A DNA stretch of 64,000 bases. It comes from Candidatus Babeliales bacterium (GTDB taxonomy: Bacteria; Babelota; Babeliae; Babelales; JACPOV01). The position numbers and the translations under genes were made by a program. The stretch covers positions 367,160 through 431,159 of the forward strand of contig JBBDJI010000013.1 of assembly GCA_040879965.1 (NCBI GenBank). Reading direction: 5' to 3'. Positions 3,134 through 63,832 of the stretch are shown piece by piece. Below the pieces are notes generated by a model, which did no database searches, was not told the origin of the DNA, and saw only the letters and a list, made by a program, of their open reading frames with translations. Each line of letters begins with the position of its first letter. Position 1 is the first letter of the stretch.

Positions 3134-4204
3134 ATGAAAAAAATTAAAATGCTTTCAACGCTATTCTTTTTGACTCTTTGTTTACATGGAATGGAAAATC
3201 AAGAGATAGTTTCATCGCTCTCTTGCGATCAATCATCCTATAAAAAACCTATCATTAAAGGCAAAAAAATTCAGATTGCTTCAGAAAAAAAATATCTTCC
3301 AGTTTATTTTAAACAACAAAAAACATCTCTTACCTCATTAACTGAATCATTAGATGAAAAAATTATTAATGCCGATATTTCTGATGCTAAAAAATTATTA
3401 TATTATAGCTTAAAATTGCCAATTGATCTTGGCTCATTGGCTCAGGAATATTTATCATACACATTAAATAGACAACAATTTTCGCTTTTTTACAAAAAAA
3501 ATGATTCATCAAATTTAGATGAAAGTTATCTTGATTCTTTAATCTTATTGAATAAAAGTGCAATCGATGCACTATGCCAATGGCGCAAACAAAAAAAGAA
3601 TAAAGTTTTTTTACCCATCAACCAACATAACTATCTCATGATTCCAACGCAGAACAAAATCACCTGCCTTTCGCTGGATAATCATACTGATCAGACGATT
3701 ATTAACGATAAACTTGATACTAATTTTACTAATGTAGATCTTAATCATTTTAAAAATATTGTAATGGTTCAATTATCAGATCGTTTACATATCTATACTT
3801 TTGGTAAAAACCAAGCACTGGATAAAATACGTATTCAAGCCTCTGAAAATAGTGTTATTGAACATGCAAAATTTTTAGATGAAGAACGAATCGTAATCAT
3901 CAGGAAAAAAAATGATGATACATATCTCGATATAATTCTCTTTGATAAAGAAGCATTCAAAATAGAAAAAACATTTGATTTAAAAAAAGAATTGCTTACA
4001 CAAAAATCAGTAAAAAGGGGAATTATTCCACCATGTAAACTCGAATCATTTAATGCTAACGATGTGCTCATAACGTTTCACGAAAAAATAGATGATACAA
4101 CTTCGGTTCTGCTTAATCTTACTGATGGAACAATTGGGTATTATGGTGATACGCCGAAAATCAAAATAGATTATTACACGGATTCAGAGTATAGAATTTT
4201 ATAG
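3134..4204 (+). CDS. hypothetical secreted protein
   Basis: Good SD ('aaggaga') upstream. Signal peptide 'MKKIKMLSTLFFLTLCLHG' is followed by 'ME'. No known domain recognised. Confidence 0.6.
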   Translation: MKKIKMLSTLFFLTLCLHGMENQEIVSSLSCDQSSYKKPIIKGKKIQIASEKKYLPVYFKQQKTSLTSLTESLDEKIINADISDAKKLLYYSLKLPIDLGSLAQEYLSYTLNRQQFSLFYKKNDSSNLDESYLDSLILLNKSAIDALCQWRKQKKNKVFLPINQHNYLMIPTQNKITCLSLDNHTDQTIINDKLDTNFTNVDLNHFKNIVMVQLSDRLHIYTFGKNQALDKIRIQASENSVIEHAKFLDEERIVIIRKKNDDTYLDIILFDKEAFKIEKTFDLKKELLTQKSVKRGIIPPCKLESFNANDVLITFHEKIDDTTSVLLNLTDGTIGYYGDTPKIKIDYYTDSEYRIL

Positions 4205-6088
4205 TTCTTCGGCTAACCCGGACCATTCTTGTTCAAGTTGACTTAGTTCACTCTGAACAGCCTCTAATTGGTACATAATTTTATTGTACTGAGGAGTACC
4301 ATATTCAAAATTAGCCATTTTTTCACCAAGTTTATTACGCTCTTGCTCTAATTTGATAATTTTCGCTTCAATCGAACGAGTTTTTTTACTAAGCTCATGA
4401 CGCTTCTGATCTGTTTTCGGAACATCCGATTCTTCATTCTGAGCATTTTGATTTTGGCTATAATTTTTTTTATTATTTCCATCTAATTGTACTTTTTTTG
4501 CATAGCAATATGTTTCATAATTACCTTCATAAGCAGATAAACCATTTGGCGTCAATTCTAAAATAACATTTGCCACTTGCTCGATAAAATCACGATCATG
4601 ACTTACCAAAAGCATAGTACCTTGATATTGTTGCAATGCCTGCAACATTACTTCTTTGGCATATAAATCTAAATGATTGGTTGGTTCATCTAATAAAAGA
4701 AAATTAGCATCTTGTAACAAAACAATCACCATTGCTACCCGATTTTTTTCACCACCGCTTAAAAACTGTATTTTTTTCTTAACGTCATCGCCAGAAAATA
4801 AAAACGATCCTAAAAATGAGCGTACTTTTGTTTCAGGAATTGTTGGACATTCATCCATTACTGTTTGCAAAACTGTTTTTTTAGGATTAAGCACTGCCGT
4901 TTGATCTTGCTGGAAATATGCAGAAGAAACATTATACCCAACTTCTATAGAGCCAGATTGTAACGGATATTTGCCTGTAATTAAATTAAATAATGTCGTT
5001 TTACCTACCCCATTTGGTGCAATTAACGCAACTTTTTGACCACGCTTAATTTCTGCTGATGCATTACTAAATAATTTGTTTTCACCAAAAGCATGTCCAA
5101 CATTATCAACAGTCAATACTATCTGACCAGCACGGACTACCGGTGGGAACGAAAAATTTACTGAAGGCATTGTGGGCTCAATTTCTATGACATCCATCTT
5201 TTCCAATTGTTTCATCATACTCTTGGCCATAGCTGCTTTTGTTGCTTTGGCACGAAATCGAGCAATAGTATCTTTCTTGCGTGCAATTTCTTTTTGTTGT
5301 TGATGATACGCAGTGTGCAATCGGCTTTGTTGTTCTTCTTTTTGCCGTACATAATCAGAAAAATTACCATCAAAAAGATGTCCATTCCCTCGTTCTAATT
5401 CAAGAATTTTTTCGCATGCTTGATCTAAAAAATATTTATCATGAGAAACAAGTAAATAACCAAATGAAGCTTCATTTAAAAATGACACAAACCATTCTTT
5501 AGTTGGTAAATCTAAATGGTTCGTTGGCTCATCAAATAAATAAAAATCGGCATTTTGTAGCAATAATTTTGCAAGCACCACACGCATTCGCCAACCAACA
5601 CTCAACTGAGATACCGGCTTTTTGAAGTTTTCTTCAGAAAATCCCAGTCCTTTTAATACTTCTTGCGTTTTGGTTTGTGCTGCGGCTGCATCAAAAAGTT
5701 GAATTTGCTCTTGCAACTCAGCATAACGATTTACTGCTGTTTCAGCTTTTTTGGCATCTAATTTTTGTTCAAGCAATACTTCAAGTGCGGTAATTTCATC
5801 ACGAATAGCTACAAATTCATCAAAAGCAGAAAATGCTTCATCAAATACGGAGTTTTCAGATTGCAACACTACTTCTTGCGGCAAATAACCCAATTTCTTC
5901 TTTTTATCAACAACAATCCGCCCTTCATCAAGCAGTTGTTGATCTGCAATAGCTTTTAAAAGCGTTGATTTGCCGGCGCCATTACGGCCCACCAAACCTA
6001 TTTTTTGATCAAACGAAATAGTAAGATTAATATTATCAAACAGTTTTCGCTCTAAAAAATGTAATGAGATATTTTTTAAAATCAGCAT
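4199..6088 (-). CDS. ABC-F family ATPase (two ABC cassettes, no membrane domain)
   Basis: Two Walker A sites ('GRNGAGKST', 'APNGVGKTT') and two ABC signatures ('LSVGWRMR', 'LSGGEKNR'). There is an inter-cassette linker and a C-terminal coiled-coil tail. Confidence 0.85.
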   Translation of the reverse strand: MLILKNISLHFLERKLFDNINLTISFDQKIGLVGRNGAGKSTLLKAIADQQLLDEGRIVVDKKKKLGYLPQEVVLQSENSVFDEAFSAFDEFVAIRDEITALEVLLEQKLDAKKAETAVNRYAELQEQIQLFDAAAAQTKTQEVLKGLGFSEENFKKPVSQLSVGWRMRVVLAKLLLQNADFYLFDEPTNHLDLPTKEWFVSFLNEASFGYLLVSHDKYFLDQACEKILELERGNGHLFDGNFSDYVRQKEEQQSRLHTAYHQQQKEIARKKDTIARFRAKATKAAMAKSMMKQLEKMDVIEIEPTMPSVNFSFPPVVRAGQIVLTVDNVGHAFGENKLFSNASAEIKRGQKVALIAPNGVGKTTLFNLITGKYPLQSGSIEVGYNVSSAYFQQDQTAVLNPKKTVLQTVMDECPTIPETKVRSFLGSFLFSGDDVKKKIQFLSGGEKNRVAMVIVLLQDANFLLLDEPTNHLDLYAKEVMLQALQQYQGTMLLVSHDRDFIEQVANVILELTPNGLSAYEGNYETYCYAKKVQLDGNNKKNYSQNQNAQNEESDVPKTDQKRHELSKKTRSIEAKIIKLEQERNKLGEKMANFEYGTPQYNKIMYQLEAVQSELSQLEQEWSGLAEEL

Positions 6089-6251
6089 ATTTGTATCAAA
6101 TAGAATAAAAATTTAAACATTGCCTTCAGAGTAGCATAAATCCAATAAAAATATAAGCCCGCCTGTAAAAGTACATCCGTTATTCAGATAATCCCCCCTT
6201 TTGACTGTAGAAAGCGAATGGGTTATTCTTATTAGAAATAAGATCGATTAG

Positions 6252-6344
6252 ATGATTCTTGGCACTCCTCTAATTCTCGGCGCTAGCATCACTTTATTGG
6301 CTCAATATTCAAAAAATTATATTATATCTTGGTTTAGCAGATAA
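6252..6344 (+). pseudogene. remnant of the 3' end of a paralogue of the downstream gene 6369-6971
   Basis: The 30-codon ORF 'MILGTPLILGASITLLAQYSKNYIISWFSR*' parallels the C-terminus 'LKGIVLSLAFQYSKNYVMSWFKK*' of the next gene. DNA identity is obvious over 'caatattcaaaaaatta..ttat.tcttggttta'. Confidence 0.55.
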
Positions 6345-6368
6345 ATTATTTAACTAGGAAAATAAATT

Positions 6369-6971
6369 ATGAAAAAAACGCTCTTTTTATTATTCTTTAC
6401 TTCTATAGCAATTCATCAAACATATGGTATGCAATTTTCACTAGAAGATAGATTTCCTAAAGGAACAGCAAGTCAATCTTTTTTTACAAGATATGATGAA
6501 AACGCAAAACAGGAACTAAAAAAAATAATTGAAAAAAATATTTTTTATATAAACAATGAATTCTCTCCAGGAAGAAAAACGCTAAATACTGAAAACATAA
6601 AATCTATTGCTGAAACATTTCCTAAGGAACAGAAGGCAAATCTGGTACTAGCAAAATTTCTAATTTTTCTACCTGATCCAGAAAGTATTTCAGGCAATAG
6701 TATTCTAAAAGCACGCCAAAAAGCCATTAAGAAGTTTGCAGATACTTGCGATTTACAAGAAACTATAGACTTTACTACTGTTTTTGCAACCAAACTCACA
6801 AATGAAGTAAATCATTCAGAAAATAGATCGCATTTTCGCAAATTCTTTAAAGAAAAAGCAGCTCAATTAAAAAGCCGTGGAGACAGAATTAAAAAGTTCT
6901 TGAAGGGGATTGTGCTGTCGCTTGCATTCCAATATTCAAAAAATTACGTTATGTCTTGGTTTAAGAAATAA
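6369..6971 (+). CDS. hypothetical secreted protein with a C-terminal hydrophobic tail
   Basis: Signal peptide 'MKKTLFLLFFTSIAIHQTYG' followed by 'MQ'. C-terminal segment 'GIVLSLAFQYSKNYVMSWFKK'. Confidence 0.6.
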   Translation: MKKTLFLLFFTSIAIHQTYGMQFSLEDRFPKGTASQSFFTRYDENAKQELKKIIEKNIFYINNEFSPGRKTLNTENIKSIAETFPKEQKANLVLAKFLIFLPDPESISGNSILKARQKAIKKFADTCDLQETIDFTTVFATKLTNEVNHSENRSHFRKFFKEKAAQLKSRGDRIKKFLKGIVLSLAFQYSKNYVMSWFKK

Positions 6972-19900: not shown

Positions 19901-20547
19901 TCTAATTGTGAATCATTAAAACATTTATAACTTGAACTCGCGTTATCAATTTCTTTAACGATGGTATAATAATCATACTTAAACCATTCCTTTGTTTGTT
20001 TCTCTAAAGAATCGATAAGTTTATTAAGATCTTTACGATCTGATTCAGTTAATTTTTGCGGTACGCCATTTTTAAACAAAATTCTGGCCATTTTTTCTTT
20101 AGTCGAAATTAAATAGCTATTTAAGGTTGATTCTTGAATTTTAAGGCTCACAAATTCTGGCAAATACAGACGATATTTTTCATCTTTTAAACAGCAATTT
20201 CGTAAAATATTTAATGTATGATTTATTTCTTGTTCAATAACCTGCATTTTAGTTGATAACTTATAACCCTCCCTAGAATGTAGATATCGGTAATAATCGT
20301 TTTTTATTTTGTCTTGAAATATTTCTCGTTGCGCAATAAACGATCTATTTTGCGGGATAACACGCATATCACAAGAAAAGCGATTTGATTCTTGTTGCAA
20401 ATGCCGTACCGCAAAGTTATCTATTGAAACAATTGCAGATCTATTGAAAGCATCCGCTGCTTGATAATTAGCAAGTTCTCTTTCCATACACAAAATGGGA
20501 AAAAACAATATAATGTTTAATGATAAGAAAAATTTTGTCGATTTCAT
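16996..20547 (-). CDS. large secreted protein with a C-terminal EndoU-like RNase toxin domain
   Basis: Signal peptide 'MKSTKFFLSLNIILFFPILC|ME', then ~900 aa of helical region and a Lys-rich linker. The C-terminus 'GWHHDVGG...KVKTSTFFPSDWSRTKVHEKVFEAFNYCK...LIGKTNEGIKIKMVFNKSGKIITYYPVF' resembles bacterial EndoU toxin domains. Confidence 0.65.
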   Translation of the reverse strand: MKSTKFFLSLNIILFFPILCMERELANYQAADAFNRSAIVSIDNFAVRHLQQESNRFSCDMRVIPQNRSFIAQREIFQDKIKNDYYRYLHSREGYKLSTKMQVIEQEINHTLNILRNCCLKDEKYRLYLPEFVSLKIQESTLNSYLISTKEKMARILFKNGVPQKLTESDRKDLNKLIDSLEKQTKEWFKYDYYTIVKEIDNASSSYKCFNDSQLEKQLSSSQPLQQITEVMDLCKKDEFQKAAEIINQNKGFWHFVNESRQVHKSFLRKLYLTHFKNKFDEFGIDKKFQKDPLYKTIRKHIIAEQCSLSTVERIKKNNAIPIPDEKMKEFFIYREELYNNLLQTVGITKPSPEVSEFLYNVVLFLDDTQNFHKMAHFCAHGAYRDSYMLEEKDVYDQLFDERGLPKFLDIFNNELLKDINIPANIHFKEHAIERECLFNLARLDVNDEQLKNIVNDGIQCIMKACDTENLKVALAYRSLAQSFVHAIYHQQSDALLKCGNVLQINTNERHIKLQLRLIPIIASLAERIHHSNLVVNEEKKYAEDILLSIDDLYGKVIHQNSVFSENKLQKICNRIEQQNLVGAFKNDGLFINPQETIIARFDIDEQKQFGLLNIIEEEKNALIKCNPIETVEKTFGLDAQCLEYIFLNEQERAIVSDIDNNQVLIEKINTIVTDMQNEAPSILTTTIPSNIGELSLKEYIAYINELQEKIALRRDAFFIGLGSKHRQAINKCINILSKYSEIAGLELLKKAVETTDMIQHPIEATYNLVKGTGQLLHFMGKFAVAYSGDLPLQDLQIQYRKEIDEVLTTLYELPTYQKFSLLINYCADTFVWRGFSTVLVKTKPLLINASNQLLQVGQQVIKVPEQFNLINKLRNLAQKEVRAIEAIEWGQGAVRSVEHGSKEASDIIGKVKDTICKEMDFAPKDIDLSNAHKVAETSENTSQISKMQKAGNSLTRKTVRNKSGNCIDPSKNKYKPKSKVSAKKEIIETPEKTKFSKRAEKQNIKKNKKIAEQPGKKLSKEIEELHSKFDGLEKGYDVFEGKDINFNYEHVCQPDITISGKASGWHHDVGGWFKNQIRRFKGKEIEILSMEKVQHGIYELEWRYMNGKVKTSTFFPSDWSRTKVHEKVFEAFNYCKQKKKLFEFNPQKSNWILIGKTNEGIKIKMVFNKSGKIITYYPVFKG

Positions 20548-20687: not shown

Positions 20688-22106
20688 ATGCGCCATTATT
20701 GCATTATTTTATTGAGTTCTTTTTTTTTCATTTTATACCCAATGGAAGATAAAAAACCCATTTCTTCACTAAAAAAGCTTTGTATTAATAAAATAGTAAG
20801 CTTTTTTGCAACCTTAAATAACATTGAAAAAAATAGATTTTTAAAAGAAAGAAAACTTCCTATAGAACTTGAAAAAACAATTGTTAAAGAATTATATTTT
20901 CAAAATATAAAAACACTTCTTAAACCAATTGCGCTACAGAAATTAAATTATTCTATAAGCACTGCCGCACTACATCCGGCTAGAAATTTATTAGCAATAA
21001 GTATTTATGATAAAAAAACTACCCAATTCAGTGATTTGTTTTTATCTAATTCAAATATTGAGCATTTTGATAATCCACGCTTATTGTTTTTAAACCTTTC
21101 TACTTATCAATACAAATCTATTCTTGATATACAAACTACCAAGAAAATAAAAAAGCTAGAATTTAATCAAGATGGATCATTATTATTAGTTCATGCGGAT
21201 CATAATATTGAGGCATATGATACAAAAAATATATATAAACCTGCCCTTGTATACAAGCATGAAGCTTTACAAAAAATAGATGCGAGTACTCTTCTTGCTT
21301 ATCAAATTATCTTTAGTAAAAGTAATGTCAGTTATATAGCACAATTAGATAATAAATCCTGGAAAGTAAACTTCAATAACTTTGCGATTCCCTTTCAAGA
21401 TATTATTACTAAAATTATTATCAATAATAATGATCTCATTGCATTGGTTGCAAACAAACAACTAACTTTATGGAATATAAAAAAACATTCATACAGAAGA
21501 CTAAATATAGACGATAATATCCATACTATTGCTTTTTCTCCTGATAATCTTTTTTTAATTACCCCACGAAATAATAATATCTTTTTTTATTCATTAACGC
21601 CGAATGAGGATTATGAAATTGGCTATCAAATTGGAAAATGCAATTTTGTGAGCCAAACAACATTATATTCACAAAAAGAATTTTATAATGTCCATACTGA
21701 AAATATAGCTGATAAAATCATACATATTTATGCGATGATATTTCACCCGATCATACCTTATATACTTATTTCAAGCGCAAGCAATCAAACACTTTCTGTT
21801 TTAAATATTAAAACTGGCAAAAAAACCATTATTCCGATTGATAATTTTCTAAAGCAAGAAAACGATTTCATCTCTTCATTACAATTTAATGCGCAAGGCA
21901 ATCGGCTTATTGGTTTTACCAATAAAGAACAAGTTATTATTTTCCCTTTTTATTCTGAAATTTATTGCCTTGAAAATATTTTAGATGGTCTTGCTAATGA
22001 AAAATTAACCGATATTTTTGCAGAGATACATCCTGAAGAGATATGGTCAGGTGCGCCATTTATCGAAATATCTCCAGAAAAAGAAACTATTTGCTCTCTT
22101 CAGTAA
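20688..22106 (+). CDS. signal-peptide protein with an N-terminal SOCS/BC-box-like motif and WD40-like repeats
   Basis: 'MRHYCIILLSSFFFILYP|ME', 'SLKKLCINKI' (S-L-x3-C-x3-I) followed by 'KLPIELEKTIVKELYF'. WD-like blades 'IKKLEFNQDGSLLLVHADHNIEAYD', 'IHTIAFSPDNLFLITP' and 'ISSLQFNAQGNRLIGF'. Confidence 0.6.
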   Translation: MRHYCIILLSSFFFILYPMEDKKPISSLKKLCINKIVSFFATLNNIEKNRFLKERKLPIELEKTIVKELYFQNIKTLLKPIALQKLNYSISTAALHPARNLLAISIYDKKTTQFSDLFLSNSNIEHFDNPRLLFLNLSTYQYKSILDIQTTKKIKKLEFNQDGSLLLVHADHNIEAYDTKNIYKPALVYKHEALQKIDASTLLAYQIIFSKSNVSYIAQLDNKSWKVNFNNFAIPFQDIITKIIINNNDLIALVANKQLTLWNIKKHSYRRLNIDDNIHTIAFSPDNLFLITPRNNNIFFYSLTPNEDYEIGYQIGKCNFVSQTTLYSQKEFYNVHTENIADKIIHIYAMIFHPIIPYILISSASNQTLSVLNIKTGKKTIIPIDNFLKQENDFISSLQFNAQGNRLIGFTNKEQVIIFPFYSEIYCLENILDGLANEKLTDIFAEIHPEEIWSGAPFIEISPEKETICSLQ

Positions 22107-26104: not shown

Positions 26105-26764
26105 CTAAATATCGTTTTCAATTAATTGACAAGAATATTCATAATACCGTTTATTTGCTGCTTTAAGTTTTTCAAGAAAGAGTTGCAAAGCATCGCCATT
26201 TTTTTTCATGAATGCCATCATAACAATCTGCATATATTCAGACAAAAATGGAGTCAGTATCATATCAGTATGCGCACTCGTTATAATTATTTTTTCATAA
26301 ATATCAAATAATTTATATTGTGGAATGGTTTGCTCAACCTCTTGCATATACGAAGCTAATGCATCTAATTGATTTTTATTAATATAGATCACTACAAGCT
26401 GTTCTAAAACTTCAAAACCACGCTTTTCATGATCAATACGCATATATAATTCAAATAATGCTTTTAAAAATATTTCAGAATCAGGATATAAGGAAATAAT
26501 ATGTTCATACACTGCTGCCGCTTCAATGCATTGATTATTTTTTTTATAAAGATAGGCTGCTTGCTCATATTTTTTTACTGCATCAGCAATATCATTAAAT
26601 GAAAGAAATATATCACCTGCTAACTGACTAGCTAATGCTTCATTTTCAAAAGAATGCATTAGTAAACGATACATACCTAATGCACGCTCTTTTTCACCCC
26701 TTGCTACAAATTCAGCTAATTTATACCATGCAACATTATATTTATCAGCAGAAAATTGTTTCAT
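26105..26764 (-). CDS. hypothetical helical-repeat (TPR-like) protein
   Basis: 219-aa ORF with no signal peptide. Repeated helix-pair pattern with 'A..Y..A..LY' spacing. Function not recognisable. Confidence 0.5.
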   Translation of the reverse strand: MKQFSADKYNVAWYKLAEFVARGEKERALGMYRLLMHSFENEALASQLAGDIFLSFNDIADAVKKYEQAAYLYKKNNQCIEAAAVYEHIISLYPDSEIFLKALFELYMRIDHEKRGFEVLEQLVVIYINKNQLDALASYMQEVEQTIPQYKLFDIYEKIIITSAHTDMILTPFLSEYMQIVMMAFMKKNGDALQLFLEKLKAANKRYYEYSCQLIENDI

Positions 26765-29386: not shown

Positions 29387-30304
29387 ATGGACATCATAAA
29401 AGCAGTTATTCCCGCAGCTGGTTTAGGAACACGCTTTTTACCTTTTACTAAAGCAGTCCCTAAAGAAATGCTTCCGCTTCTTAATAAACCAGCAATTCAA
29501 TACATTATTGAAGAAGGCATTGCTGCTGAACTTAAAAATTTTATTATGATAACCTCAAAAGAAAAACATGCCATTAGTAATCATTTTGATTCTAATATTG
29601 AATTAGATATGATTTTAAAGGAACGTGGCAATAGTGAAATTCTACATACTCTTACCCGAATCACGCAAACTGCTGCTTTCAGCTATGTACGTCAAATAGA
29701 ACCGCGCGGGCTTGGTCATGCCATTTGGTCTGCACGACATTTAATTGGAAAAGAATATTTTGGTATTTTTTTACCTGATGATATTATCATTTCCAAAATA
29801 CCCGCATTAGCACAATTGATGAAAATTGCGCGTCAAGAAAGAGCAAGTGTTATTGCAATTCAAGAAGTACCAATGGATGAAGTATCTTCATATGGCGTTA
29901 TTGGCATAAAAAAACAAATTACGCCAAATTTATTCCAAGTTTCACATGTGGTTGAAAAACCGGAACAAAAAGATGCCCCTTCTAATTTGGCAATTGTTGG
30001 GCGTTATGTGTTATCAAATAAAATCTTTTCTTGTTTAGAAGAAATTGAAACTGATGAACAAGAAGAATTGCAATTAACTGACGCTATCAGCCAAATGATT
30101 CATAAAAATGAAAAGGTCTTTGCCTATAAAATTCAAGGTGTACGTTACGATATTGGCAACCCAATCGGTTGGATTAAAGCAATTATCGGCTGCGCATTAC
30201 AAGATCCTTATTACGCACCACATATTAGTAAATTTTTAGAAGATCGTAAGGCTTTAGAAGAATTTATTTATAATCCTACAAAAATTACTGAACATCACTT
30301 ATAA
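29387..30304 (+). CDS. galU: UTP--glucose-1-phosphate uridylyltransferase
   Basis: 'AVIPAAGLGTRFLPFTKAVPKEMLPLLNKP', 'GLGHAIW' and 'VVEKP'. Confidence 0.9.
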   Translation: MDIIKAVIPAAGLGTRFLPFTKAVPKEMLPLLNKPAIQYIIEEGIAAELKNFIMITSKEKHAISNHFDSNIELDMILKERGNSEILHTLTRITQTAAFSYVRQIEPRGLGHAIWSARHLIGKEYFGIFLPDDIIISKIPALAQLMKIARQERASVIAIQEVPMDEVSSYGVIGIKKQITPNLFQVSHVVEKPEQKDAPSNLAIVGRYVLSNKIFSCLEEIETDEQEELQLTDAISQMIHKNEKVFAYKIQGVRYDIGNPIGWIKAIIGCALQDPYYAPHISKFLEDRKALEEFIYNPTKITEHHL

Positions 30305-30426: not shown

Positions 30427-30642
30427 ATGGAGAGATATGTGAAGCAATCAATAATCTTTATATTTATTTTTATGCAATCTTTTATCCTCAATTGCTGCCC
30501 ATGTGTAGGGACGGTAAATGAACAAAGTCCTCCATTTTTTTTAGATGAATGTTATTTGAGTGAAACAATCGATTTTGATACGACGAGTACGGCAGTTGAA
30601 AATGATCAGGAGACTCATGAAGAAATTATTACTAGCTCTTAG
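30427..30642 (+). CDS. small hypothetical secreted Cys-containing protein (start uncertain; GTG 30439 has the better SD)
   Basis: Hydrophobic leader 'SIIFIFIFMQSFILNCCPC' and an acidic tail. Overlaps the next gene by 26 nt. Confidence 0.35.
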   Translation: MERYVKQSIIFIFIFMQSFILNCCPCVGTVNEQSPPFFLDECYLSETIDFDTTSTAVENDQETHEEIITSS

Positions 30643-30859
30643 TTTATTTATGGGAAATATATATGGTGAATTTGGTTGCATGGATAACAGCAAGCATTTA
30701 GATACACGCACTGGACCTGACTTTAAAAACTATCATTACGTCTCTTGTACTTGCCCATGCTACCGCTACAAACAATCGTTCAAACGTGGGCGATGCGAAG
30801 AATGCTTACATTATCGCGCACCAAGAGGAACGTTACAAATAAATACGCAGTTTCGTTAA
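30617..30859 (+). CDS. small secreted Cys-rich protein
   Basis: Internal ATG 30617 is preceded by the SD 'aggag'. 'MKKLLLALSLFMGNIYG' signal peptide. Cys cluster 'SCTCPCYRY...RGRCEECLHY'. Confidence 0.5.
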   Translation: MKKLLLALSLFMGNIYGEFGCMDNSKHLDTRTGPDFKNYHYVSCTCPCYRYKQSFKRGRCEECLHYRAPRGTLQINTQFR

Positions 30860-30960: not shown

Positions 30961-32289
30961 TTATCGATATTTTGCCAATTTCCAACCACCATATAATGCA
31001 CAACTGTATAATAAAGCTTTAAGGAGCAATTCTTTTTTGCTTGTACTATGTGTTGAATATTTGCAAAAATTTATGATATTTTCATTAATTGACGCACCAT
31101 GTGTGATGAGTAGTTTTGCCAATTTATATTGTTTGTTAAGTAATGCATAAATAAGCGCTGTAGCATGTTCATTATCACATAGGTTAATATTAGCACCATT
31201 TTGTAGAAGTAATTGTATTGTATCTAGATTACCCATATATACTGCGCGCATTAATGCTGACCATCCGTCATTATTTTGCATATTAACTTGGGCACCATTT
31301 TGAATAAATAGTTGCATTATATCTAGATTACCCTTTTCATACATTAATACTGTTTGACCATGAATATCTTGCATATTGACTTGCGCACCATTTTGTAGAA
31401 GTAATTGTATTGTATCTAGATTACCCATATATACTGCGCGCATTAATGCTGTTTGACCATAAATATCTTGCATATTGACTTGCGCACCATTTTGTAGAAG
31501 TAATTGTATTATATCTAGATTACCCTTATATGCTGCATGAATTAATGCCGACATGCCTTTATTATCTTGCTGATTTATTTGCGTGCGATTATTAATAAGA
31601 AGTTGCGATACCACATTTGTATGCCCCTCTTGCACAGCAATCATCAATGCAGTTTCACCTTTATTATTTGACTTATTAATATCCGCACCATGATTGATAA
31701 GAAATTGCACCACAACATCATGGCCTTCACCTGCCGCATACAGCAAAGCGGTCTCTCCGCTATTATCCTGCTGATCAATTTGTGCGCCATTCTTGACTAA
31801 AAATAGCATAATATCAATTGCGCCTTTTTGCGCTGTAATCATCAATAAAGTAGTACCATTACTTTCCAAAGCTTTAAAATCTGCACCATGTGCTACTAAA
31901 CTTTCGAATAATGCTAGTTTTTTATTCTTAATCGCACTGATTAAGGATGTTTCTTCATTAATTGTACAATTTATATCAGCGCCACCTTTGATAAGATCAT
32001 CCAAATATTCTGATCGCAAATCTCTATCAAATAATGCTTTATTATAGGAATCTTTATTGGAATATTTTTGCCAAAACAAAATATCTACCTTCAAATAATC
32101 AGGAAGATTTGCATCAATGGCATCAATCGGCAACTCTCTGCAATCTAGATAGCGTCCTATTGCAGAAGCTGCTTGTGTTTTTAATGAGATTGGCTCCATA
32201 GCTTGTATAGAAACGCCAATAAGTAAAATTACAGGAAAAAGCACTGTGCGTGCATAATTTAATAATAAATTCATTTTTAAATTCTCCAT
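30961..32289 (-). CDS. ankyrin-repeat protein (about 9-10 repeats) with a signal peptide
   Basis: Repeats of the type 'G.TALM.A...G..D.VQLLL.NGA.VN.QD'. Leader 'VILLIGVSIQA|ME', then 'ISLKTQAASAIGRYL...LPDYLKVDI'. Confidence 0.85.
   Translation of the reverse strand: MENLKMNLLLNYARTVLFPVILLIGVSIQAMEPISLKTQAASAIGRYLDCRELPIDAIDANLPDYLKVDILFWQKYSNKDSYNKALFDRDLRSEYLDDLIKGGADINCTINEETSLISAIKNKKLALFESLVAHGADFKALESNGTTLLMITAQKGAIDIMLFLVKNGAQIDQQDNSGETALLYAAGEGHDVVVQFLINHGADINKSNNKGETALMIAVQEGHTNVVSQLLINNRTQINQQDNKGMSALIHAAYKGNLDIIQLLLQNGAQVNMQDIYGQTALMRAVYMGNLDTIQLLLQNGAQVNMQDIHGQTVLMYEKGNLDIMQLFIQNGAQVNMQNNDGWSALMRAVYMGNLDTIQLLLQNGANINLCDNEHATALIYALLNKQYKLAKLLITHGASINENIINFCKYSTHSTSKKELLLKALLYSCALYGGWKLAKYR
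31190..31560 (-). repeat. near-identical tandem ~99-bp (33-codon) units inside the ankyrin gene
   Basis: A 67-nt string 'gcaccattttgtagaagtaattgtattgtatctagattacccatatatactgcgcgcattaatgctg' occurs identically at 31193 and 31385. A close copy lies at 31484. Confidence 0.85.
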
Positions 32290-35045: not shown

Positions 35046-35597
35046 TTAAGAACGTTCATATAATCCGACAAGTTCACTTTTTGCTAAAATATGTCCTTCC
35101 ATGCTTTTCTCTAAATCTTGTTTTGAAATATTTTTTGGTAAATCCAAAATAGTATCAAGCGCATATAATTTAAAAAAATAACGATGCTTACCATGCCCTT
35201 TTGGTGGACATGGGCCACCAAAACCTGGCTTACCAAAATCAGTATTTCCTTCTTTACCACCAAGTTGCGCAATTGCCATTCCTTCATCTAATTTAGTTAT
35301 ATGAGCCGGTAAATTATACACAACCCAATGAACCCATGTTTTATTTGGTGCATCGGGATCATCAACAATTAACGCCAAACTTTTGGCATCTGATGGAACT
35401 CCTTCCCATTTGAGTTCTGGCGAAATATTTTTTCCTTCACAAGTAAATGTTTTAGGAATTGATTGATTATTTTCAAATGCCGGACTAAAAAGTTTCATAT
35501 TTTTATTCCCCTCATTTTTTTGATTAGTAGTTTTTACATAATGATAACCGCATCCGATTATCACAACACCTAATATGACCAAAAATATTTTTTTCAT
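35046..35597 (-). CDS. YbhB/YbcL-family PEBP-like protein, probable lipoprotein
   Basis: 'DDPDAP', 'WVHWVVYN' and 'GHGKHRYFFKLYAL'. N-terminal 'LGVVIIGC' lipobox-like site. Confidence 0.8.
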   Translation of the reverse strand: MKKIFLVILGVVIIGCGYHYVKTTNQKNEGNKNMKLFSPAFENNQSIPKTFTCEGKNISPELKWEGVPSDAKSLALIVDDPDAPNKTWVHWVVYNLPAHITKLDEGMAIAQLGGKEGNTDFGKPGFGGPCPPKGHGKHRYFFKLYALDTILDLPKNISKQDLEKSMEGHILAKSELVGLYERS

Positions 35598-43908: not shown

Positions 43909-46401
43909 TCAATTTTTAAGTCTTTTAATAGGCAATTCATTTTCATCTGTTACAAAAACACCTAGTTCTTCCTTGTTTTGAATCGGCCCTGGCGTTTTTT
44001 TAGTAATTTTAGGCTTTGTTTCTTCAATTTTTCTTTTTCCGCTTTCTTCTTTTTCATTGTTATTACAAGCTGCTACGATATTATTACTATTATGAACGTT
44101 ATTATTATTGTTTGTTCTGCGTTCAATAGTTACTGAAAGTGGTGTTTCGATTGAAAGAAGATTATTATAAGTAGGTCGTTCCCATGGCTGCGTAGGATTA
44201 TAAACTGGCCTTACGCCAACAACAATACCATTTGGCACTATATCAAAAGCTTCATAATTAAAAAAATATTCTACTTTTGCGCCCGAAAAACCCTCTGTAT
44301 TTGCTGTTTGAATATGTTTTTTGCCTTTGATAATAATCTCACTTTCATCTTCATTGAATAATATTTTTTCAATAGGAAAAAAACAAATATTACGTTGCAA
44401 AGTTTTGTCTTGCTTAAAAGTTTTCCTTATCAATGCATCAGCATCAAAATCCCAGCATATCAATTCATTTTTTGGTGTTATACCGATAACACATTTGTTT
44501 TTTGTTCCTATCGCTATTGAAACAAAAGAATACTTTTCGATGCTACAAGTTTTATAATATTGATATTTACCATCTTTATTTTGATAGAGCAAAATATTTT
44601 GTCCTTTATAAATTGCCAAAAACTGTCCATCTTTACTTAATACAACCCCACGAGAAGATCCTATATCATCAGGCAAAGGAATCTCATATAATTTTTTGCC
44701 ATCAATTCTGGTGTCATTAAATCCCCAAAAACTAATTGTTTTTTCTGTCAAAATGATTACTGATTGACCATTCTTATCATGTAAATGTGCTAAATAGGTA
44801 TAATCAGAAATCGGTACACCAACTAGAAATTGGTGGCATTTAACATTATTTTTACTGTTAAATAGATATAATGTTTTATAATCCCCATTATTTCCTGTTG
44901 CTGCTAGATAATCATCATTAAAAAATTTTAACGATCTGCAAGACCTCAAATTATGAATCATTGAGTGTCTTTTACTACCATATTGGCCACTCTTAAACAT
45001 TTGCCATAAATTTTCAGAAAATACTTCTATCATATTCTTTTTTGAACTAAAAGCATAAGATATACCATTTGGGCCACAAGAAACTGTATATGAACTATCT
45101 GACACGCCATAACCTCTGTAATCAGTCCATGTTTGATCAGACTTTATATCGTGCTTTTCCCTATTCTTCATAATTTTTTGATATAGACCAGGGCTTAATT
45201 CATATTGTGCTAAATTATTTTCGCCATTTTTTATTTTATTAACAAGAACTCGAAAAATTATATCTTGAACAGAAGGCAAATTAAAATATTCTGCTAAATA
45301 ACTCATCGATTTCAATTCTTGCATTGAATAATCTATATTATTAGTGTTGATTTTATTTATATAAAAACTTTTTAAATCTTGACTATTATTAAATTTATAC
45401 TCTAACTCTAGAAGATTGATTAATCTGCGAACTAAAACACCTGAAAGGTCTAAATAAATTACTGCATCTGTTTGATTATCAAATAACATATCTTGGATTG
45501 TTTTGCTTTGCATAACTAAATTTTTTGAGCAAGCCAATTTTGTATCATCGCTAGCTATTAAAAACACATTTTCTGATATTAATTCTGTTATTTTTTCAAG
45601 ATCCATATAATTCGCTATATTGCGTATTGTTTCTTGCTCATCTGTAGGCATTTGCGCATAAGATTTAATAAATGTTGTTTTAAGTTGAATTAATTGTTCA
45701 GACTTTTCTGCATTATTTTCAATGCCTTTTATATATGCTTGAAACATGACCAAAAATAGAAAATATTGCCATCGATCAGTATTGATATTCGGTACATAGA
45801 TGGGTTGCGGACTCTGCATCATATTACAAAGAGTTTTACTTTGTAATGCATACTTTGTATGTAATATAAAATTGTTATTATTTTCACCCTGGATGAGAAT
45901 CATTTGCTCAAGAATATTTTGTACATCATTTAATTGAAACTCATTGGCGACATTTTTAAGATAAGTCATATTTTCTGGAGTATAATATTCTTCAGCATAA
46001 TCGAATTCATTTTGATTTTTATAAAAAAGATGATCGGTTTTAAATGAGCCAAAATTTTTTAACTTCTGAGTAGTATTCTTATTTAATTTAATCTTTTGCA
46101 ATTTTTCAATGAAGTTATCTTTAAGCAATTGCTTTTTGCGTTCATCAGCCTCATTGAATGCTTTCTGTTTTTCAAGTAATGAGGCAAAAATATCTAATTT
46201 TTGAGGTGAGTCGATTTCTGGCATTTCAATAGTCTCATTTTTATATTTTTCTGCCATATCAGAAAGAATCTTGTTCGATTTAACCAAATTTTTATCAAAC
46301 GATACTTCTTCATCATATCCGGTAATTATATGCATTGCCTGGATTGGTAGAAAAAAAGCAAAAACTATCGTAATTATAAGAGAATAAAGAAACTTCATCA
46401 T
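43909..46401 (-). CDS. secreted protein with three tandem BTB/Skp1-like modules, a WD40-like beta-propeller and a basic NLS-like tail
   Basis: Leader 'FAFFLPIQA|MH'. Three modules pair an 'S..I..M...P..' block with an 'A.Y..L' block (e.g. 'LIASDDTKLACSKNLVMQSKTIQDML...IYLDLSGVLVRRLINLLE' with 'YLAEYFNLPSVQDIIFRVL'). Propeller-like 'VVLSKDGQFLAIYKGQNILLYQ'. Tail 'GKRKIEETKPKITKK...PIKRLKN'. Confidence 0.6.
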   Translation of the reverse strand: MMKFLYSLIITIVFAFFLPIQAMHIITGYDEEVSFDKNLVKSNKILSDMAEKYKNETIEMPEIDSPQKLDIFASLLEKQKAFNEADERKKQLLKDNFIEKLQKIKLNKNTTQKLKNFGSFKTDHLFYKNQNEFDYAEEYYTPENMTYLKNVANEFQLNDVQNILEQMILIQGENNNNFILHTKYALQSKTLCNMMQSPQPIYVPNINTDRWQYFLFLVMFQAYIKGIENNAEKSEQLIQLKTTFIKSYAQMPTDEQETIRNIANYMDLEKITELISENVFLIASDDTKLACSKNLVMQSKTIQDMLFDNQTDAVIYLDLSGVLVRRLINLLELEYKFNNSQDLKSFYINKINTNNIDYSMQELKSMSYLAEYFNLPSVQDIIFRVLVNKIKNGENNLAQYELSPGLYQKIMKNREKHDIKSDQTWTDYRGYGVSDSSYTVSCGPNGISYAFSSKKNMIEVFSENLWQMFKSGQYGSKRHSMIHNLRSCRSLKFFNDDYLAATGNNGDYKTLYLFNSKNNVKCHQFLVGVPISDYTYLAHLHDKNGQSVIILTEKTISFWGFNDTRIDGKKLYEIPLPDDIGSSRGVVLSKDGQFLAIYKGQNILLYQNKDGKYQYYKTCSIEKYSFVSIAIGTKNKCVIGITPKNELICWDFDADALIRKTFKQDKTLQRNICFFPIEKILFNEDESEIIIKGKKHIQTANTEGFSGAKVEYFFNYEAFDIVPNGIVVGVRPVYNPTQPWERPTYNNLLSIETPLSVTIERRTNNNNNVHNSNNIVAACNNNEKEESGKRKIEETKPKITKKTPGPIQNKEELGVFVTDENELPIKRLKN

Positions 46402-58014: not shown

Positions 58015-59082
58015 TCAATCCATAAATTCATTAAGAATAGTAAATATAGATTTTTCATGCTCATTATCCCAATTTACGTTTACTGAAGAAAAAGAAGAAG
58101 AAGAATCTGTTTTCAAAACGGTAGTTTGTTTAATCATAGTATGGTTTAAGTTTTGTAAAACATTTGCAATATCTTGCGCATAAGATATACCAAGAACAAA
58201 TATCGTCTTTTCTCTTGGTAATTTTAATAACCCATGTAAATAATGTACAACACCGGTATTAAAAGCAAATCCATGAAGCATAATTTTATGAATTCTGTCA
58301 ATTTCCTGGAGAATTTCATCAATGGTATCAGACTGTTGAAGATGATTCAAAAAAACTAATAATAATGACATCCGTTCATTATATTTATCAAATAGTTCGT
58401 AAATCTTATTTCTGCTTTCATTAATTTTTTTTATTCTCGAATCTAATAGAGATACGATTTTAATTTGTTGTAAATTGTTATAATGATCTCTAATTTCTTT
58501 TGATTTTTTTACTTGTGCTTTCATGGCTTCAAAATATTCAGCTAAGGACATATCTTTATATTCATTCAATTCATAAAAATCTCTCATAGCCTGATAAAGA
58601 TGAAGTGGTTCTGGAAATTTTTTAAAATTTTTTATAGCATCAGGGTCAAGTTTTGAAAAAACTTCTATTAAGCATTGCCTATGCTCATTAATAACCGTCC
58701 ATTCAAATACTTTTTGATGATAGAATTCCAATTTCAAGTAAGGATTTTTGCTTATATCTTTAGAAAATTGATAGTGCAAATAATTATTAGTCAGAGAATT
58801 ATCAATATATTTTGGTTCAGTTTTTAACGTATCATAATCATATATACATTGAATCATTTTTTTTGTTTCTAATGACTTATTATTAAGAACCTTCATTATT
58901 AATTTATTTTTTTCAACAAGTTTTTTTTCAATATCTTCGCGCAAAAAACACCCAATTAATAGTATTTTTTGTTTGCTTTCTTTATTTTCTAATAAACTGA
59001 ATTCAACCATTGCCTGCAATTGATTAAAAACAATAGCAATAACTAATAATAAAAATAATGAATACTTAACTTTTAATAGCAT
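58015..59082 (-). CDS. hypothetical secreted protein (paralogue of 59142-60419, without the MYND finger)
   Basis: 'NQLQA|MVEFSLLENK...ILLIGCF...IYDYD' parallels the neighbour. Confidence 0.6.
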   Translation of the reverse strand: MLLKVKYSLFLLLVIAIVFNQLQAMVEFSLLENKESKQKILLIGCFLREDIEKKLVEKNKLIMKVLNNKSLETKKMIQCIYDYDTLKTEPKYIDNSLTNNYLHYQFSKDISKNPYLKLEFYHQKVFEWTVINEHRQCLIEVFSKLDPDAIKNFKKFPEPLHLYQAMRDFYELNEYKDMSLAEYFEAMKAQVKKSKEIRDHYNNLQQIKIVSLLDSRIKKINESRNKIYELFDKYNERMSLLLVFLNHLQQSDTIDEILQEIDRIHKIMLHGFAFNTGVVHYLHGLLKLPREKTIFVLGISYAQDIANVLQNLNHTMIKQTTVLKTDSSSSFSSVNVNWDNEHEKSIFTILNEFMD

Positions 59083-59141: not shown

Positions 59142-60419
59142 TTAATTTTTATTACAATTAACTTTATGTTTTGGCCAATCTGCTCTTTGACAATTGACTG
59201 AGCAATACCAAATCGATTTACAATATCCACAATGTTTTAGTGAAATTTCAGCAGATGTTTTATTGCAAATATTACATGCTTTTTCAGCTTTAATATTATT
59301 ACTGTTTTTTGGAAGTAAATCTTTTGCAAAAGATGAAATTAGAGTATTTTCTTTTGCTTGATAATTGACTAATCCATTTATCACTTCTTCAATAAAATCA
59401 TCCTGCTCTTTATGCCAACTAATTGTTGCTCCATATCTATTCACATCATTCATGACACAATTTTTTTTAATTATATTGTAATTTAATCGTTGCAATCCAT
59501 CTAAAATTTTTGAAAGATAAGCAGCTCCTACAATAAACACTGAATTTGATGCTTTAGCATTTAACAAGTTGCGTAAATAAATCATACTACCAATTTGAGC
59601 ATCAGAACCAAGAAGTAAGGCACCAGGAAGTTTATTATCAATTGCATCTAATGCTTCACGACTTGTCTTAAATTTTTCTAAGTATGAAATTAAAGCAAAT
59701 AATAATAATACGTCCTTATTGGATTTTATATTCAGAATATTTTGAATATCTTTGTTATGTTCTTTAATTTTTTCAATTTTTTCTTCAAACATTAAAGCAA
59801 TATCTACCTGATTATCCTTTTTATAATCATCTACCATAGAACTAAATTGCTTTTCTTCTTTTTCAAGCGTGTTAATATATTCAACTGCAAGCATATCCGC
59901 AATGTCTCTATTATAAAATCTTTGCAGCAAAGAATTCATATGATTTATATATCGAGCATCACTTTTAAAATCATTTATAGAATGATTAACAAGATCAACA
60001 AAAATTTCTTCTAATAACCTTATATGACGAGAAATTATTGTACGCTCAAATCCTCTATGATGACACGTTTTTAGTTTACAATACGAATTGTTTTTAACTT
60101 CTTTTGAAAATTGCCAATGTATATAATTAATAATTTCAGATACATTCGCATAATCTGGTTCAGCGTTACCTACATTATAATCATAGATAAAGTTAATAGG
60201 TGCTTTTTTCTCCAATGATTTCTGATTAAGTGATTGCAAAAATGCTTTACTTTTATCAAATGTATAGTTTTCTACGCAATTATCTCCAAATTGCCCTATT
60301 AAAAATACCTTTTGTTTTGTTTGATTATTTTCTAATAAATTAAATTCAACCATCGCCTGTAATTGAACAATACTAATTAACAATAAAAAAATTGAGTATA
60401 CTTTTTTTAATTGGATCAC
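59142..60419 (-). CDS. secreted protein with a C-terminal MYND-type zinc finger
   Basis: 'CNICNKTSAEISLKHCGYCKSIWYCSVNCQRADWPKHKVNC' fits the MYND C4-C2HC pattern, including 'YCS..CQ..DW..HK..C'. Confidence 0.8.
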   Translation of the reverse strand: MIQLKKVYSIFLLLISIVQLQAMVEFNLLENNQTKQKVFLIGQFGDNCVENYTFDKSKAFLQSLNQKSLEKKAPINFIYDYNVGNAEPDYANVSEIINYIHWQFSKEVKNNSYCKLKTCHHRGFERTIISRHIRLLEEIFVDLVNHSINDFKSDARYINHMNSLLQRFYNRDIADMLAVEYINTLEKEEKQFSSMVDDYKKDNQVDIALMFEEKIEKIKEHNKDIQNILNIKSNKDVLLLFALISYLEKFKTSREALDAIDNKLPGALLLGSDAQIGSMIYLRNLLNAKASNSVFIVGAAYLSKILDGLQRLNYNIIKKNCVMNDVNRYGATISWHKEQDDFIEEVINGLVNYQAKENTLISSFAKDLLPKNSNNIKAEKACNICNKTSAEISLKHCGYCKSIWYCSVNCQRADWPKHKVNCNKN

Positions 60420-62107: not shown

Positions 62108-62111
62108 TAAA

Positions 62112-62699: not shown

Positions 62700-62899
62700 A
62701 GTTCCCCCCATAGAGAATTGTGTTTCTAAACTGCTTATTATTGTATCAGAGAAAATGGTTATCGCCAAGCAACAATACCCTAATCATTTCTATTAGAATA
62801 TAAAAGAAAAAACAATCTGCTCATAAAGCTATCAAAGAGGGAAGCTTTATCCTTAAGCAACCATAAATCAAGTCAATTAGTAAAAAAAATTATTGCGTT

Positions 62900-63322
62900 T
62901 TATGTAAGAAAAAAATAATTATCTAAAGAAAAAATACCGCTACCAGCAATTACTAAACTGATAAAAATAATGAGTTGAGAGAGTGGAAAAGAGATATAGC
63001 CATAACTATCCCCTTTTGCAATATGATGAATAATAGCAACAAGCATAGTAAAACTCATAAAGCAAGCTGCTATACGAGTACCTAAACCCAACGTCAGACA
63101 AATTCCACCCAGAAATTCACTTAACATAGCACAAATGCCCCAAAAGAGTGGCACAAAGGTTATTCCTAAATTACGCATTTGTTCTCCAGTCCATACCAAT
63201 TCAGGAATACCACGCTTTATTTTTAAAAAACCATGCCCAATAAATAATATACCAATACCGATCCGCAACATGGTAAGCGCTATAGCATTTAATTGAGGGG
63301 TAGATGAAATAATTAACTCCAT
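62900..63322 (-). CDS. DoxX-family membrane protein
   Basis: Four TM segments. 'LRIGIGILFIGHGFLKI' is typical of DoxX. Confidence 0.7.
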   Translation of the reverse strand: MELIISSTPQLNAIALTMLRIGIGILFIGHGFLKIKRGIPELVWTGEQMRNLGITFVPLFWGICAMLSEFLGGICLTLGLGTRIAACFMSFTMLVAIIHHIAKGDSYGYISFPLSQLIIFISLVIAGSGIFSLDNYFFLT

Positions 63323-63331
63323 AAAAATTCC

Positions 63332-63832
63332 TTATTTGAGTTCTAGTTCTTTTTTGGTAGATTCTATTGCAAACTTAGTTAAATATTTAATATTTTTTCC
63401 TAATAATTCAACAATCTCATCTATTTTTTTCATGGATTCTCTTGCCTCTAAAGCTAATCCTTCTTGATATTTAGCTTTAGTATTTTGCAATTCATGAAGA
63501 ATACCGGTTTCTACTTTGGTTTGCAAAGTCATTTTTTGTAATCGTAATTTTTGTACGTTAAACTCTACAAGCGTTTTTGGATTTAAATGTATTAATATGT
63601 TATTTAAATCTGAAACATATTTTGCAGCAATATAAAGATTCATAGCAAGATCATCATAAGGCACTTTTGATTTTCTTTGCATTTTAAATAAGTCCAAATT
63701 TATTTCAGCAAAAAATATTGCGAATTTAACTTCATTGTTAATATTTTCAAGTTCATTCTCCATCGCATTACTTATATTAGATTGCATGAAGAATAAAATT
63801 AAAATTATGAAATTAAGTGTTTTTCTTTGCAT
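63332..63832 (-). CDS. hypothetical secreted helical protein
   Basis: 'MQRKTLNFIILILFFMQSNISNA|ME' leader. The rest is charged and helical. Confidence 0.5.
   Translation of the reverse strand: MQRKTLNFIILILFFMQSNISNAMENELENINNEVKFAIFFAEINLDLFKMQRKSKVPYDDLAMNLYIAAKYVSDLNNILIHLNPKTLVEFNVQKLRLQKMTLQTKVETGILHELQNTKAKYQEGLALEARESMKKIDEIVELLGKNIKYLTKFAIESTKKELELK

Follow-up and report, generated by a model that had tools for sequence, protein, structure and literature searches.

The window analysed here is a stretch of 64,000 nucleotides from a Candidatus Babeliales bacterium (assembly GCA_040879965.1, contig JBBDJI010000013.1, positions 367,160 to 431,159 of the forward strand), and this text deals with a methionine that stands directly behind the signal peptide of many of the secreted proteins encoded in it. 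The window has a guanine-plus-cytosine (GC) content of about 31% and belongs to a genome of the Dependentiae (Babeliales). Members of this phylum parasitise protists; they are widespread, and hardly any has been cultured. In a collection with one genome per species, its nearest DnaE relatives come from metagenome-assembled genomes of Babeliales/Dependentiae (TM6) at 62-71% identity, whereas other phyla reach 40-47%. Housekeeping genes of the window encode FtsW, RuvB, YebC, DnaE, PheS, GalU, PPDK, RF-1, a nucleoside transporter and a DsbD-like protein, and lineage-specific secreted open reading frames (ORFs) are scattered among them. The backbone of FtsW, RuvB, YebC, a YicC-like protein, DnaE, a TPR-like protein of 219 amino acids (aa), PheS and GalU has the same order in another Babeliales locus, L003 in our numbering (window 2016-30304, L003:873-18153). 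The secreted ORFs between these genes are non-homologous between the two loci, including those at syntenic positions, and the sites between backbone genes look like hot spots of accessory-gene turnover.

About 30 ORFs of the window have a signal-peptide-like N-terminus, and in 12 of them the leader is followed by a junction Met. The initial annotation had quoted twelve such junctions of a small residue and Met; all of them were reproduced at their positions, and the pattern proved to be larger than claimed as it extends over the phylum. Each of the 12 N-termini opens with a basic n-region; the hydrophobic core behind it is uncharged, approximately 8-15 residues long and placed within the first 30 or so, and the Met comes after it. 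Overall, the junctions conform to the signal peptidase I rule of a small -1 residue and a small or aliphatic -3 residue, 3-7 residues behind the core and with no Pro at +1; 20688 is the exception. The residue at position -1 is Ala or Gly in ten proteins, Cys in 20547 and Pro in 20688, and eight of the 12 junctions read Met-Glu. At a generous 4.5% per protein, 12 junction Mets have a chance of about 3e-9, and of 5e-10 at the rate observed in other phyla, so that 12 among about 30 leaders are far beyond chance. The carriers had been described as unrelated, which holds for 9-10 independent families, since three paralogue pairs exist among the 12: 9902/11356, 58015/59142 (genes 59082(-) and 60419(-)) and two ankyrin proteins. 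They had also been described as mostly eukaryote-like or effector-like, which is true only in part. Two ankyrin proteins, one or two WD40-like proteins, one MYND finger protein and one EndoU toxin agree with this; apart from a weak VPS15-like match, the rest have no recognisable domain, about six being without a Pfam match. Four secreted proteins named as non-carriers do lack the Met (VFA↓EN, AFA↓NV, ANA↓QI and VNA↓GV, the arrow marking the junction); position 51054, given as the start of one of them, is actually the 3' end of a minus-strand gene starting at 51752.

The first carrier on the plus strand (3134..3193) has the leader MKKIKMLSTLFFLTLCLHG (3134-3190), the Met codon at 3191-3193 and the mature start MENQE (junction LCLHG↓ME). 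It encodes 356 aa without a Pfam domain, and its Shine-Dalgarno (SD) duplex energy is -8.9 kcal/mol at the first ATG and +0.7 at the internal one, the order and unit also used below. In 6369..6431 (+), the leader MKKTLFLLFFTSIAIHQTYG precedes Met 6429-6431 (MQ; junction QTYG↓MQ) on a 200-aa protein with a weak VPS15-like helical match (SD -4.2 versus +1.7). The paralogues 9902..9955 (+; leader MRIIFLLPIFLVFITNG, Met 9953-9955, MEI, junction FITNG↓ME, SD -5.5 versus -2.2) and 11356..11412 (+; leader MKHSLISLIFFSFSIMKG, Met 11410-11412, MEI, junction IMKG↓ME, SD -3.4 versus -3.3) come next. The former sits within a longer TTG-started ORF (9833), and the SD belongs to the start at 9902; the internal GGGA of the latter abuts the ATG and is thus too close to act as SD. 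The 472-aa WD40-like protein of 20688..20744 (+) has the leader MRHYCIILLSSFFFILYP and Met 20742-20744 (ME; junction ILYP↓ME; SD -5.1 versus +3.7), and cleavage exactly before its Met is doubtful due to the Pro at -1. A 129-aa ankyrin protein is encoded at 52715..52792 (+), where the leader MNRSICVSYFLNLLFLFSFNIQLNG ends before Met 52790-52792 (MEP; junction QLNG↓ME; SD -6.5 versus +2.3).

On the minus strand, 20485..20547 holds the leader MKSTKFFLSLNIILFFPILC and Met 20485-20487 (ME; junction PILC↓ME) of a protein of 1183 aa with a C-terminal EndoU nuclease domain, for which the public gene call on locus L081 likewise uses the first ATG. The second ankyrin-repeat protein (32197..32289 (-)) has a leader ending in GVSIQA and Met 32197-32199 (MEP); with an SD of -6.4 at 32274 and +0.4 at 32289, the gene probably starts at ATG 32274 instead of 32289. 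An 830-aa protein with weak Skp1/POZ and WD40 matches follows at 46333..46401 (-) with the leader MMKFLYSLIITIVFAFFLPIQA and Met 46333-46335 (MH; junction PIQA↓MH). Both members of the next paralogue pair share the junction QLQA↓MV and the mature start MVEF: the ORFan at 59008..59082 (-; leader MLLKVKYSLFLLLVIAIVFNQLQA, Met 59008-59010) and its neighbour 59142-60419, which starts with GTG, carries the leader IQLKKVYSIFLLLISIVQLQA and Met 60351-60353 (60351..60419 (-)) and ends in a C-terminal MYND finger. For the 58015 protein no homologue was found among 5.8 billion proteins, and a profile search of 1.84 billion representatives returned only two remote relatives. The last of the 12 (63761..63832 (-)) is a 166-aa ORFan with the leader MQRKTLNFIILILFFMQSNISNA and Met 63761-63763 (MEN; junction ISNA↓ME). 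A possible thirteenth case is located at 14591..14647 (+), where the leader MYKRLFLPIFCYLAINIP is followed by Met (MI) and the residue at -1 is Pro.

For the phylum, 80 metagenome contigs were retrieved with the DnaE-adjacent 219-aa protein, which is apparently Dependentiae-specific, and were combined with loci L001-L004 to a total of 617 kb. This sample is centred on one syntenic neighbourhood plus the window; two extra loci (L162 and L163) were too small to contribute. As controls we used 76 DnaE loci of other phyla (1.48 Mb), and signal peptides were called by a simple home-made heuristic detector and not by SignalP. An Ala, Gly, Ser or Cys followed by Met within 10 residues of the hydrophobic core was present in 12/35 cases in the window, 59/214 in the Dependentiae loci and only 12/308 in the controls (odds ratio 9.4, p=9e-15), and a junction Met followed by Asp or Glu in 7/35, 26/214 and 3/308, respectively. 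The test of Met at +1 that the initial annotation had proposed, here carried out across the related contigs with a cleavage matrix using only positions -3 and -1, gave 28/179 in Dependentiae versus 6/250 in controls (p=7e-7). At high-confidence sites Met makes up 16% of the +1 residues in Dependentiae, where it is the commonest residue, compared to 4% in controls. The difference between Dependentiae and controls persists in every GC bin, low-GC controls contributing 1/60. A composition artefact is ruled out by the GC-binned comparison and by the rate of false leaders in housekeeping orthologues, which is 1/207.

The 71 strict cases from the Dependentiae loci and the window form 51 families. 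Overall, the Met-type junction is found on roughly 16-28% of Dependentiae signal peptides and not on the bulk of substrates that a general +1 rule would cover. Its carriers are mostly accessory, host-directed, orphan or eukaryote-like proteins (ankyrin, WD40-like, MYND, toxin), and it was not seen in the conserved envelope proteins PBP4, TolB and PS decarboxylase. Ankyrin proteins are over-represented among the Met-type proteins (7/59 versus 1/77). A search with ankyrin sequences returned generic ankyrin proteins of many organisms and served only as a control: 62 of 120 ankyrin proteins of other organisms have leaders and four of these 62 a junction Met, while in Dependentiae it is seven of eight. 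The proposed lineage specificity was thereby confirmed at the level of the phylum, as the pattern is absent as a habit from the 76 control loci and the Met is missing from 58/62 secreted ankyrin proteins elsewhere. These data strongly support that the junction of a small residue with Met and an acidic residue is a phylum-wide, Dependentiae-specific habit. No prior description of it was found in the literature searched. Occurring in 51 unrelated secreted families, this mark provides a cheap flag for candidate effectors in metagenome-assembled genomes. It also calls for caution with gene callers and signal-peptide predictors, by which the internal ATG may be picked.

A logo anchored on the Met has L, A, I or T at -3, F, Y or Q at -2 and A (31), S (17), G (15) or C (8) at -1. 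The search pattern confined -1 to these four residues; without this limit, a small residue precedes 51/74 junction Mets. Judged by these positions, the junction is what one would expect of signal peptidase I sites in an organism rich in AT. Among non-membrane proteins, Met occurs within ten residues of the core in 38% of the Dependentiae proteins versus 14% of the controls, and after subtraction of this baseline Met behind a small residue accounts for essentially the whole excess (51/74 versus 7/26), which places it at P1' and not merely nearby. The +2 position is occupied by Asp or Glu in 42% of the cases. For the other secreted proteins of these genomes the figure is 7-8%; in leaderless proteins, residue 2 is acidic in 9% and most often Lys. 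The enrichment at +2 is confined to Asp and Glu and does not extend to Asn or Gln.

Several other readings of the junction were tried and discarded. Avoidance of N-degrons as a global driver does not agree with the share of 'stabilising' +1 residues, which is near that of controls, and mimicry of NatB-type N-termini does not agree with the missing enrichment of Asn and Gln. A leader of the type IV prepilin kind would differ in that the hydrophobic segment here precedes the cut and Glu is at +2 rather than +5. The lipobox ([LVI][ASTVI][GAS]-Cys) is absent from all 12 window proteins. On the nucleotide level, a Kozak-like GNN-ATG-G motif is explained by Gly and Ala codons at -1 and Glu and Val codons at +2. 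A 'length squeeze', in which upstream stop codons would press the leader onto an old Met, finds no counterpart in the upstream open frame, which is no different, or in leader length (22 versus 20 residues). The leaders have no obvious DNA similarity to each other by eye (no DNA comparison was run), and a mobile 'leader cassette' is hence not suggested.

The hydrophobic leaders appear to be translated. First starts have a mean SD duplex energy of -5.1 kcal/mol and internal ATGs one of -1.9 kcal/mol, and in this respect the internal ATGs of Met-type genes equal random internal ATGs (p=0.67); those of the window range from +3.7 to -3.3 kcal/mol. Substitutions in the leaders of one six-member orthologue family are distributed over the three codon positions as 53/4/97, and 62 codon differences between leader pairs are synonymous. 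The leaders of the window paralogues 59082(-) and 60419(-) differ by a whole-codon indel. In cytosolic housekeeping orthologues, a spurious hydrophobic extension occurred once in 207 proteins (one PheS). As far as sequence can show, the leader is translated and initiation takes place at the upstream start. The opposite scenario, which the initial annotation had named as one that would overturn its interpretation, was rejected on the grounds of SD position, codon-type substitution, the whole-codon indel and the 1/207 rate. About half of the Dependentiae starts have only a weak SD, and approximately 13% of the gene starts are non-ATG. At the position equivalent to the junction Met, GTG and TTG make up 5/52 of the Val and Leu codons, compared to a background of 16.7%.

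Two enzyme families offer a different picture of a leader in front of a Met. The PEBP-family gene 35046..35597 (-) of the window encodes a lipoprotein-like leader (…VIIGC), a 16-residue linker and then the ancestral Met (35496-35498), with an SD of -8.9 at the upstream ATG and -7.7 at the internal one. L155 has PEBP copies without a leader, and these begin at the Met equivalent to 35496-35498; the PEBP leader is also present in L084. GalU is the UTP-glucose-1-phosphate uridylyltransferase, a normally cytosolic enzyme, and the window GalU (29387-30304) has no leader. In six of 27 Dependentiae relatives, GalU carries a signal-peptide or anchor-like N-terminal extension (L085:7037-8032(-), L094:1600-2565(-), L098:7543-8511(-), L121:7519-8460(-), L142:4853-5815(-) and L160:7221-8162(-)). 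These extensions precede the universally conserved start M-x-I-x-K-x-V-I-P-A-A-G, and an SD-like sequence lies before the ancestral ATG in 6/6 and before the new upstream ATG in 5/6 of them, being weak in L160. Judging from these alignments, the GalU and PEBP leaders are additions in front of an ancestral start Met. The strong SD before both PEBP ATGs makes this gene a candidate for true dual initiation with an exported and a cytosolic isoform, and dual initiation is likely for the window PEBP and for the leadered GalU of relatives. Such double starts suggest dual-localised enzymes in these reduced genomes.

Immediately downstream of GalU, a small Cys-rich family of probable lipoproteins is encoded across the phylum, with one member in the window (30560-30859 (+)) and 17 homologues. 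Its pattern is …GC↓[MLQ]DxSxHL…Y/HxVxCxCxC, the window member reads …FGC↓MD, and Met follows the lipobox Cys in four of the 19 listed members. In the count of families, this Cys-rich lipobox family was entered as a single one.

The account of the junction Met that we favour, with somewhat less than even confidence, regards it as an old start residue: the genes would have gained a leader, and the Met would have been kept at P1' and joined by an acidic neighbour that was selected afterwards. Translation starts at the first ATG or GTG, the one preceded by an SD, and the leader is a genuine Sec-type signal peptide for export through the inner membrane. The predicted cut by signal peptidase I would then fall between the small residue at -1 (Ala, Ser, Gly or Cys, with an aliphatic or small residue at -3) and Met, leaving an exported mature protein that would begin with Met-Glu or Met-Asp. 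The Met itself would be the old start codon of once leaderless genes to which a 5' leader was added, in a phylum where the part of the proteome converted to Sec export may be unusually large. The internal ATG would no longer serve as a start, the Met presumably being maintained as the P1' amino acid. The acidic residue would have been selected later beside it, replacing the Lys that is usual after a bacterial start; AAA to GAA is a single transition.

In favour of this origin, the enriched +1 residue is precisely the initiator residue. Moreover, the GalU and PEBP leaders stand before ancestral start Mets, and in a family of small beta proteins the Met-type members have 'M plus a few residues' before the conserved core, which resembles a native N-terminus. 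The mostly orphan or eukaryote-like nature of the carriers, the many signal peptides of Chromulinavorax and Babela and the replaceability of the Met (see below) also count for it. A retained initiator behind a signal-peptide module had already been suggested in the initial annotation. The ancestral Met is seen in the GalU and PEBP relatives; a shared module is not, the leaders being dissimilar by eye, though not aligned. The gain of signal peptides through an acquired N-terminal region has been described as a sporadic event in Enterobacterales (Honigschmid et al. 2018, PMC5952966). As in that study, orthologues differ here in the presence of a leader, and an added segment is plainly seen in GalU and PEBP of Dependentiae. 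However, neither a retained internal Met nor a phylum-wide signature at the cleavage site was reported there.

A number of observations speak against a simple relic. The Met is nearly always exactly at P1' and not at +2 to +6, and Asp or Glu at +2 is far more frequent (42%) than at residue 2 of leaderless proteins (9%). There is no build-up of Val or Leu encoded by GTG or TTG at the junction despite about 13% non-ATG starts. The Met-type share is equal in singleton (31%) and widely conserved (25%) families, and the Met has outlasted a divergence down to about 20% identity within the MYND family, as well as that of old paralogue pairs. In other bacteria, whose secreted ankyrin proteins must likewise have acquired their leaders, these have the Met in only 4/62 cases, and for none of the 12 window proteins did we find a leaderless homologue starting at the junction Met. 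In addition, the signal peptides were called heuristically and the cleavage sites are predictions. The sharp P1' position, the acidic +2 residue, the missing GTG/TTG counterparts and the missing age effect imply that a purely neutral relic fits poorly.

The main and a serious rival, which we consider less likely, is a functional rule of the phylum for P1' and P2'. Selection would act directly on the exposed Met-Asp/Glu of proteins destined to move beyond the periplasm, and an old start codon would not be required as the source of the Met. The dipeptide could direct proteins to a type II or vesicle route or provide an N-terminus that remains inert once in the cytosol of the host. An N-terminal Met is no Arg/N-degron if the next residue is non-hydrophobic, in contrast to Gln, Glu, Asp and Lys, which often follow bacterial leaders. 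Such a rule agrees with several of the features just listed, namely Met exactly at P1' with all of the excess coupled to a small -1 residue, the Met-acidic dipeptide in 42% versus 7-9% in comparators, and the absence of an age effect and of GTG/TTG counterparts. It would also account for the conservation of the junction next to downstream sequence that diverges and acquires indels, for the restriction to one phylum with its absence from secreted ankyrin proteins elsewhere, and for the ankyrin enrichment of 7/59 versus 1/77. On the other hand, it would be a coincidence if the one residue selected out of twenty were the initiator, and most signal peptides do without it. Replacements of the Met do occur, by L, I or A in 3/13 homologues with invariant Ala at -1 and Gln at -2 and by Phe in one remote MYND-family homologue, whereas -1 and -2 never change in these families. 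Ala, Ser, Thr and Val would avoid N-degrons equally well, a NatB-type N-terminus is not mimicked, and no receptor or enzyme is known.

Lineage-specific rules for +1, such as Gln/pyroglutamate in Bacteroidetes, and sorting rules for +2, such as Asp+2 of lipoproteins, do exist, which counts for a functional rule. In the 'Q-rule' of Bacteroidetes, Gln is found at +1 of signal peptidase I substrates and is cyclised to pyroglutamate. The Dependentiae junction resembles it as a phylum-specific single +1 residue that follows a canonical Sec leader and is visible in cross-phylum logos of cleavage sites. It differs in that the Met has an acidic +2 neighbour, is present on about a quarter of the substrates, is enriched in accessory or host-directed proteins and implies no modifying enzyme. 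Since the +1 residue of Dependentiae is the initiator, it suggests a story of origin that the Q-rule does not have.

A more specific form of such a rule, which might be called an M-rule and which we regard as improbable, would have the cleavage-exposed Met-Asp/Glu sort or stabilise proteins bound for the host via type II secretion or vesicles, as opposed to periplasmic ones, in a counterpart of PEXEL-type motifs. The PEXEL motif of Plasmodium (RxL↓xE/Q/D) is eukaryotic, is cut by plasmepsin V in the endoplasmic reticulum, and its new N-terminus is acetylated. By analogy, cleavage would in both cases give host-bound proteins a new N-terminus with an acidic or amidic residue in second place. A recognition of Met-Glu by some machinery is hypothetical. 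In Babela massiliensis, 79 of 126 ankyrin proteins have signal peptides and the type II system is the only secretion system detected (PMC4378268), and 44% of the coding sequences of Chromulinavorax destructans have signal peptides (PMC6561590). The secreted ankyrin and eukaryote-like effectors of these two organisms belong to the same phylum and the same protein classes as the Met-type carriers. The post-cleavage residue is not mentioned for either of them; term searches found 'methionine' absent from PMC4378268 and 'cleavage' absent from PMC6561590. Babela is the one genome for which these papers looked at secretion systems, and no apparatus other than Sec plus type II was recognised there; what is at stake is how hundreds of ankyrin and eukaryote-like proteins of the phylum are selected for delivery. 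The Met mark could either be a sorting or stability signal or record the large-scale conversion of leaderless genes into secreted ones by a parasite.

Dual initiation, in which both in-frame ATGs are used and the secreted isoform is accompanied by a leaderless cytosolic one that equals the mature protein, had been offered by the initial annotation for the 12 proteins, for which we consider it very unlikely. It would fit a conserved ATG that coincides with the first residue of the mature protein, enzymes of the phylum clearly do have this architecture (GalU in six relatives, PEBP in the window), and the weak SD of about half of the Dependentiae starts leaves room for SD-independent initiation. 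However, the internal ATGs lack an SD, and GTG and TTG show no excess at the junction position, and both findings make a functional second start in the effector-like genes improbable. There is no evident use for ankyrin, WD40 or toxin proteins in the bacterial cytosol, and the EndoU nuclease would be harmful there. Compared to known in-frame alternative starts with and without a leader, GalU of the relatives and the window PEBP fit with an SD before each ATG; the 12 window genes differ as no ribosome-binding signal precedes the second ATG. That the internal ATG is the real start and the leader an untranslated open region, T-rich and therefore reading as hydrophobic, is barely conceivable: T-rich DNA at 31% GC does encode Phe, Leu and Ile, and one PheS orthologue does have a spurious extension, but the spurious rate of 1/207 compares with 24-28% here, the SD is before the first and not the second ATG, the leaders evolve as coding sequence, with basic n-regions and canonical -3 and -1 residues, and low-GC controls lack the pattern.

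Some further observations concern individual genes of the window. The EndoU protein (16996-20547 (-)) is followed directly, with one base between, by a 250-aa ORF without a Pfam match (16242-16994), which is the usual layout of polymorphic toxin and immunity genes. The tandem paralogues 14591-15238 (+) and 15596-16213 (+), at 33% identity, read NIP↓MILKSH… and TINA↓ANDF…, so that Met-type and non-Met-type members occur in one family. The 219-aa protein next to DnaE (26105-26764 (-)) has weak TPR or SNAP-like matches and always adjoins DnaE. It has 126 confirmed relatives from metagenomes, the inspected loci having Dependentiae-type neighbours, and could be a handy marker of the phylum. Small secreted proteins of about 130-145 aa are encoded at 1389-1826 (-), 46705-47100 (-) and 47258-47647 (-), the latter two being paralogues. 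The first of them and ORFs in L082, L085, L092, L098, L119, L141 and L153 have a common N-terminal strand 'h-x-h-x-N-x-S/T' by eye, BLAST linking only some of them. In this group of small beta proteins, the conserved strand is preceded by Met plus a few residues in some members, whereas in others the cut is directly at the strand. Finally, an apparent thiol-disulfide operon (54431-56283 (-)) encodes a glutaredoxin-like CxxC protein, a membrane protein of the DsbD/CcdA type and a membrane-anchored protein of 166 aa, the anchor of which also ends in …GGESA↓MNEPP.

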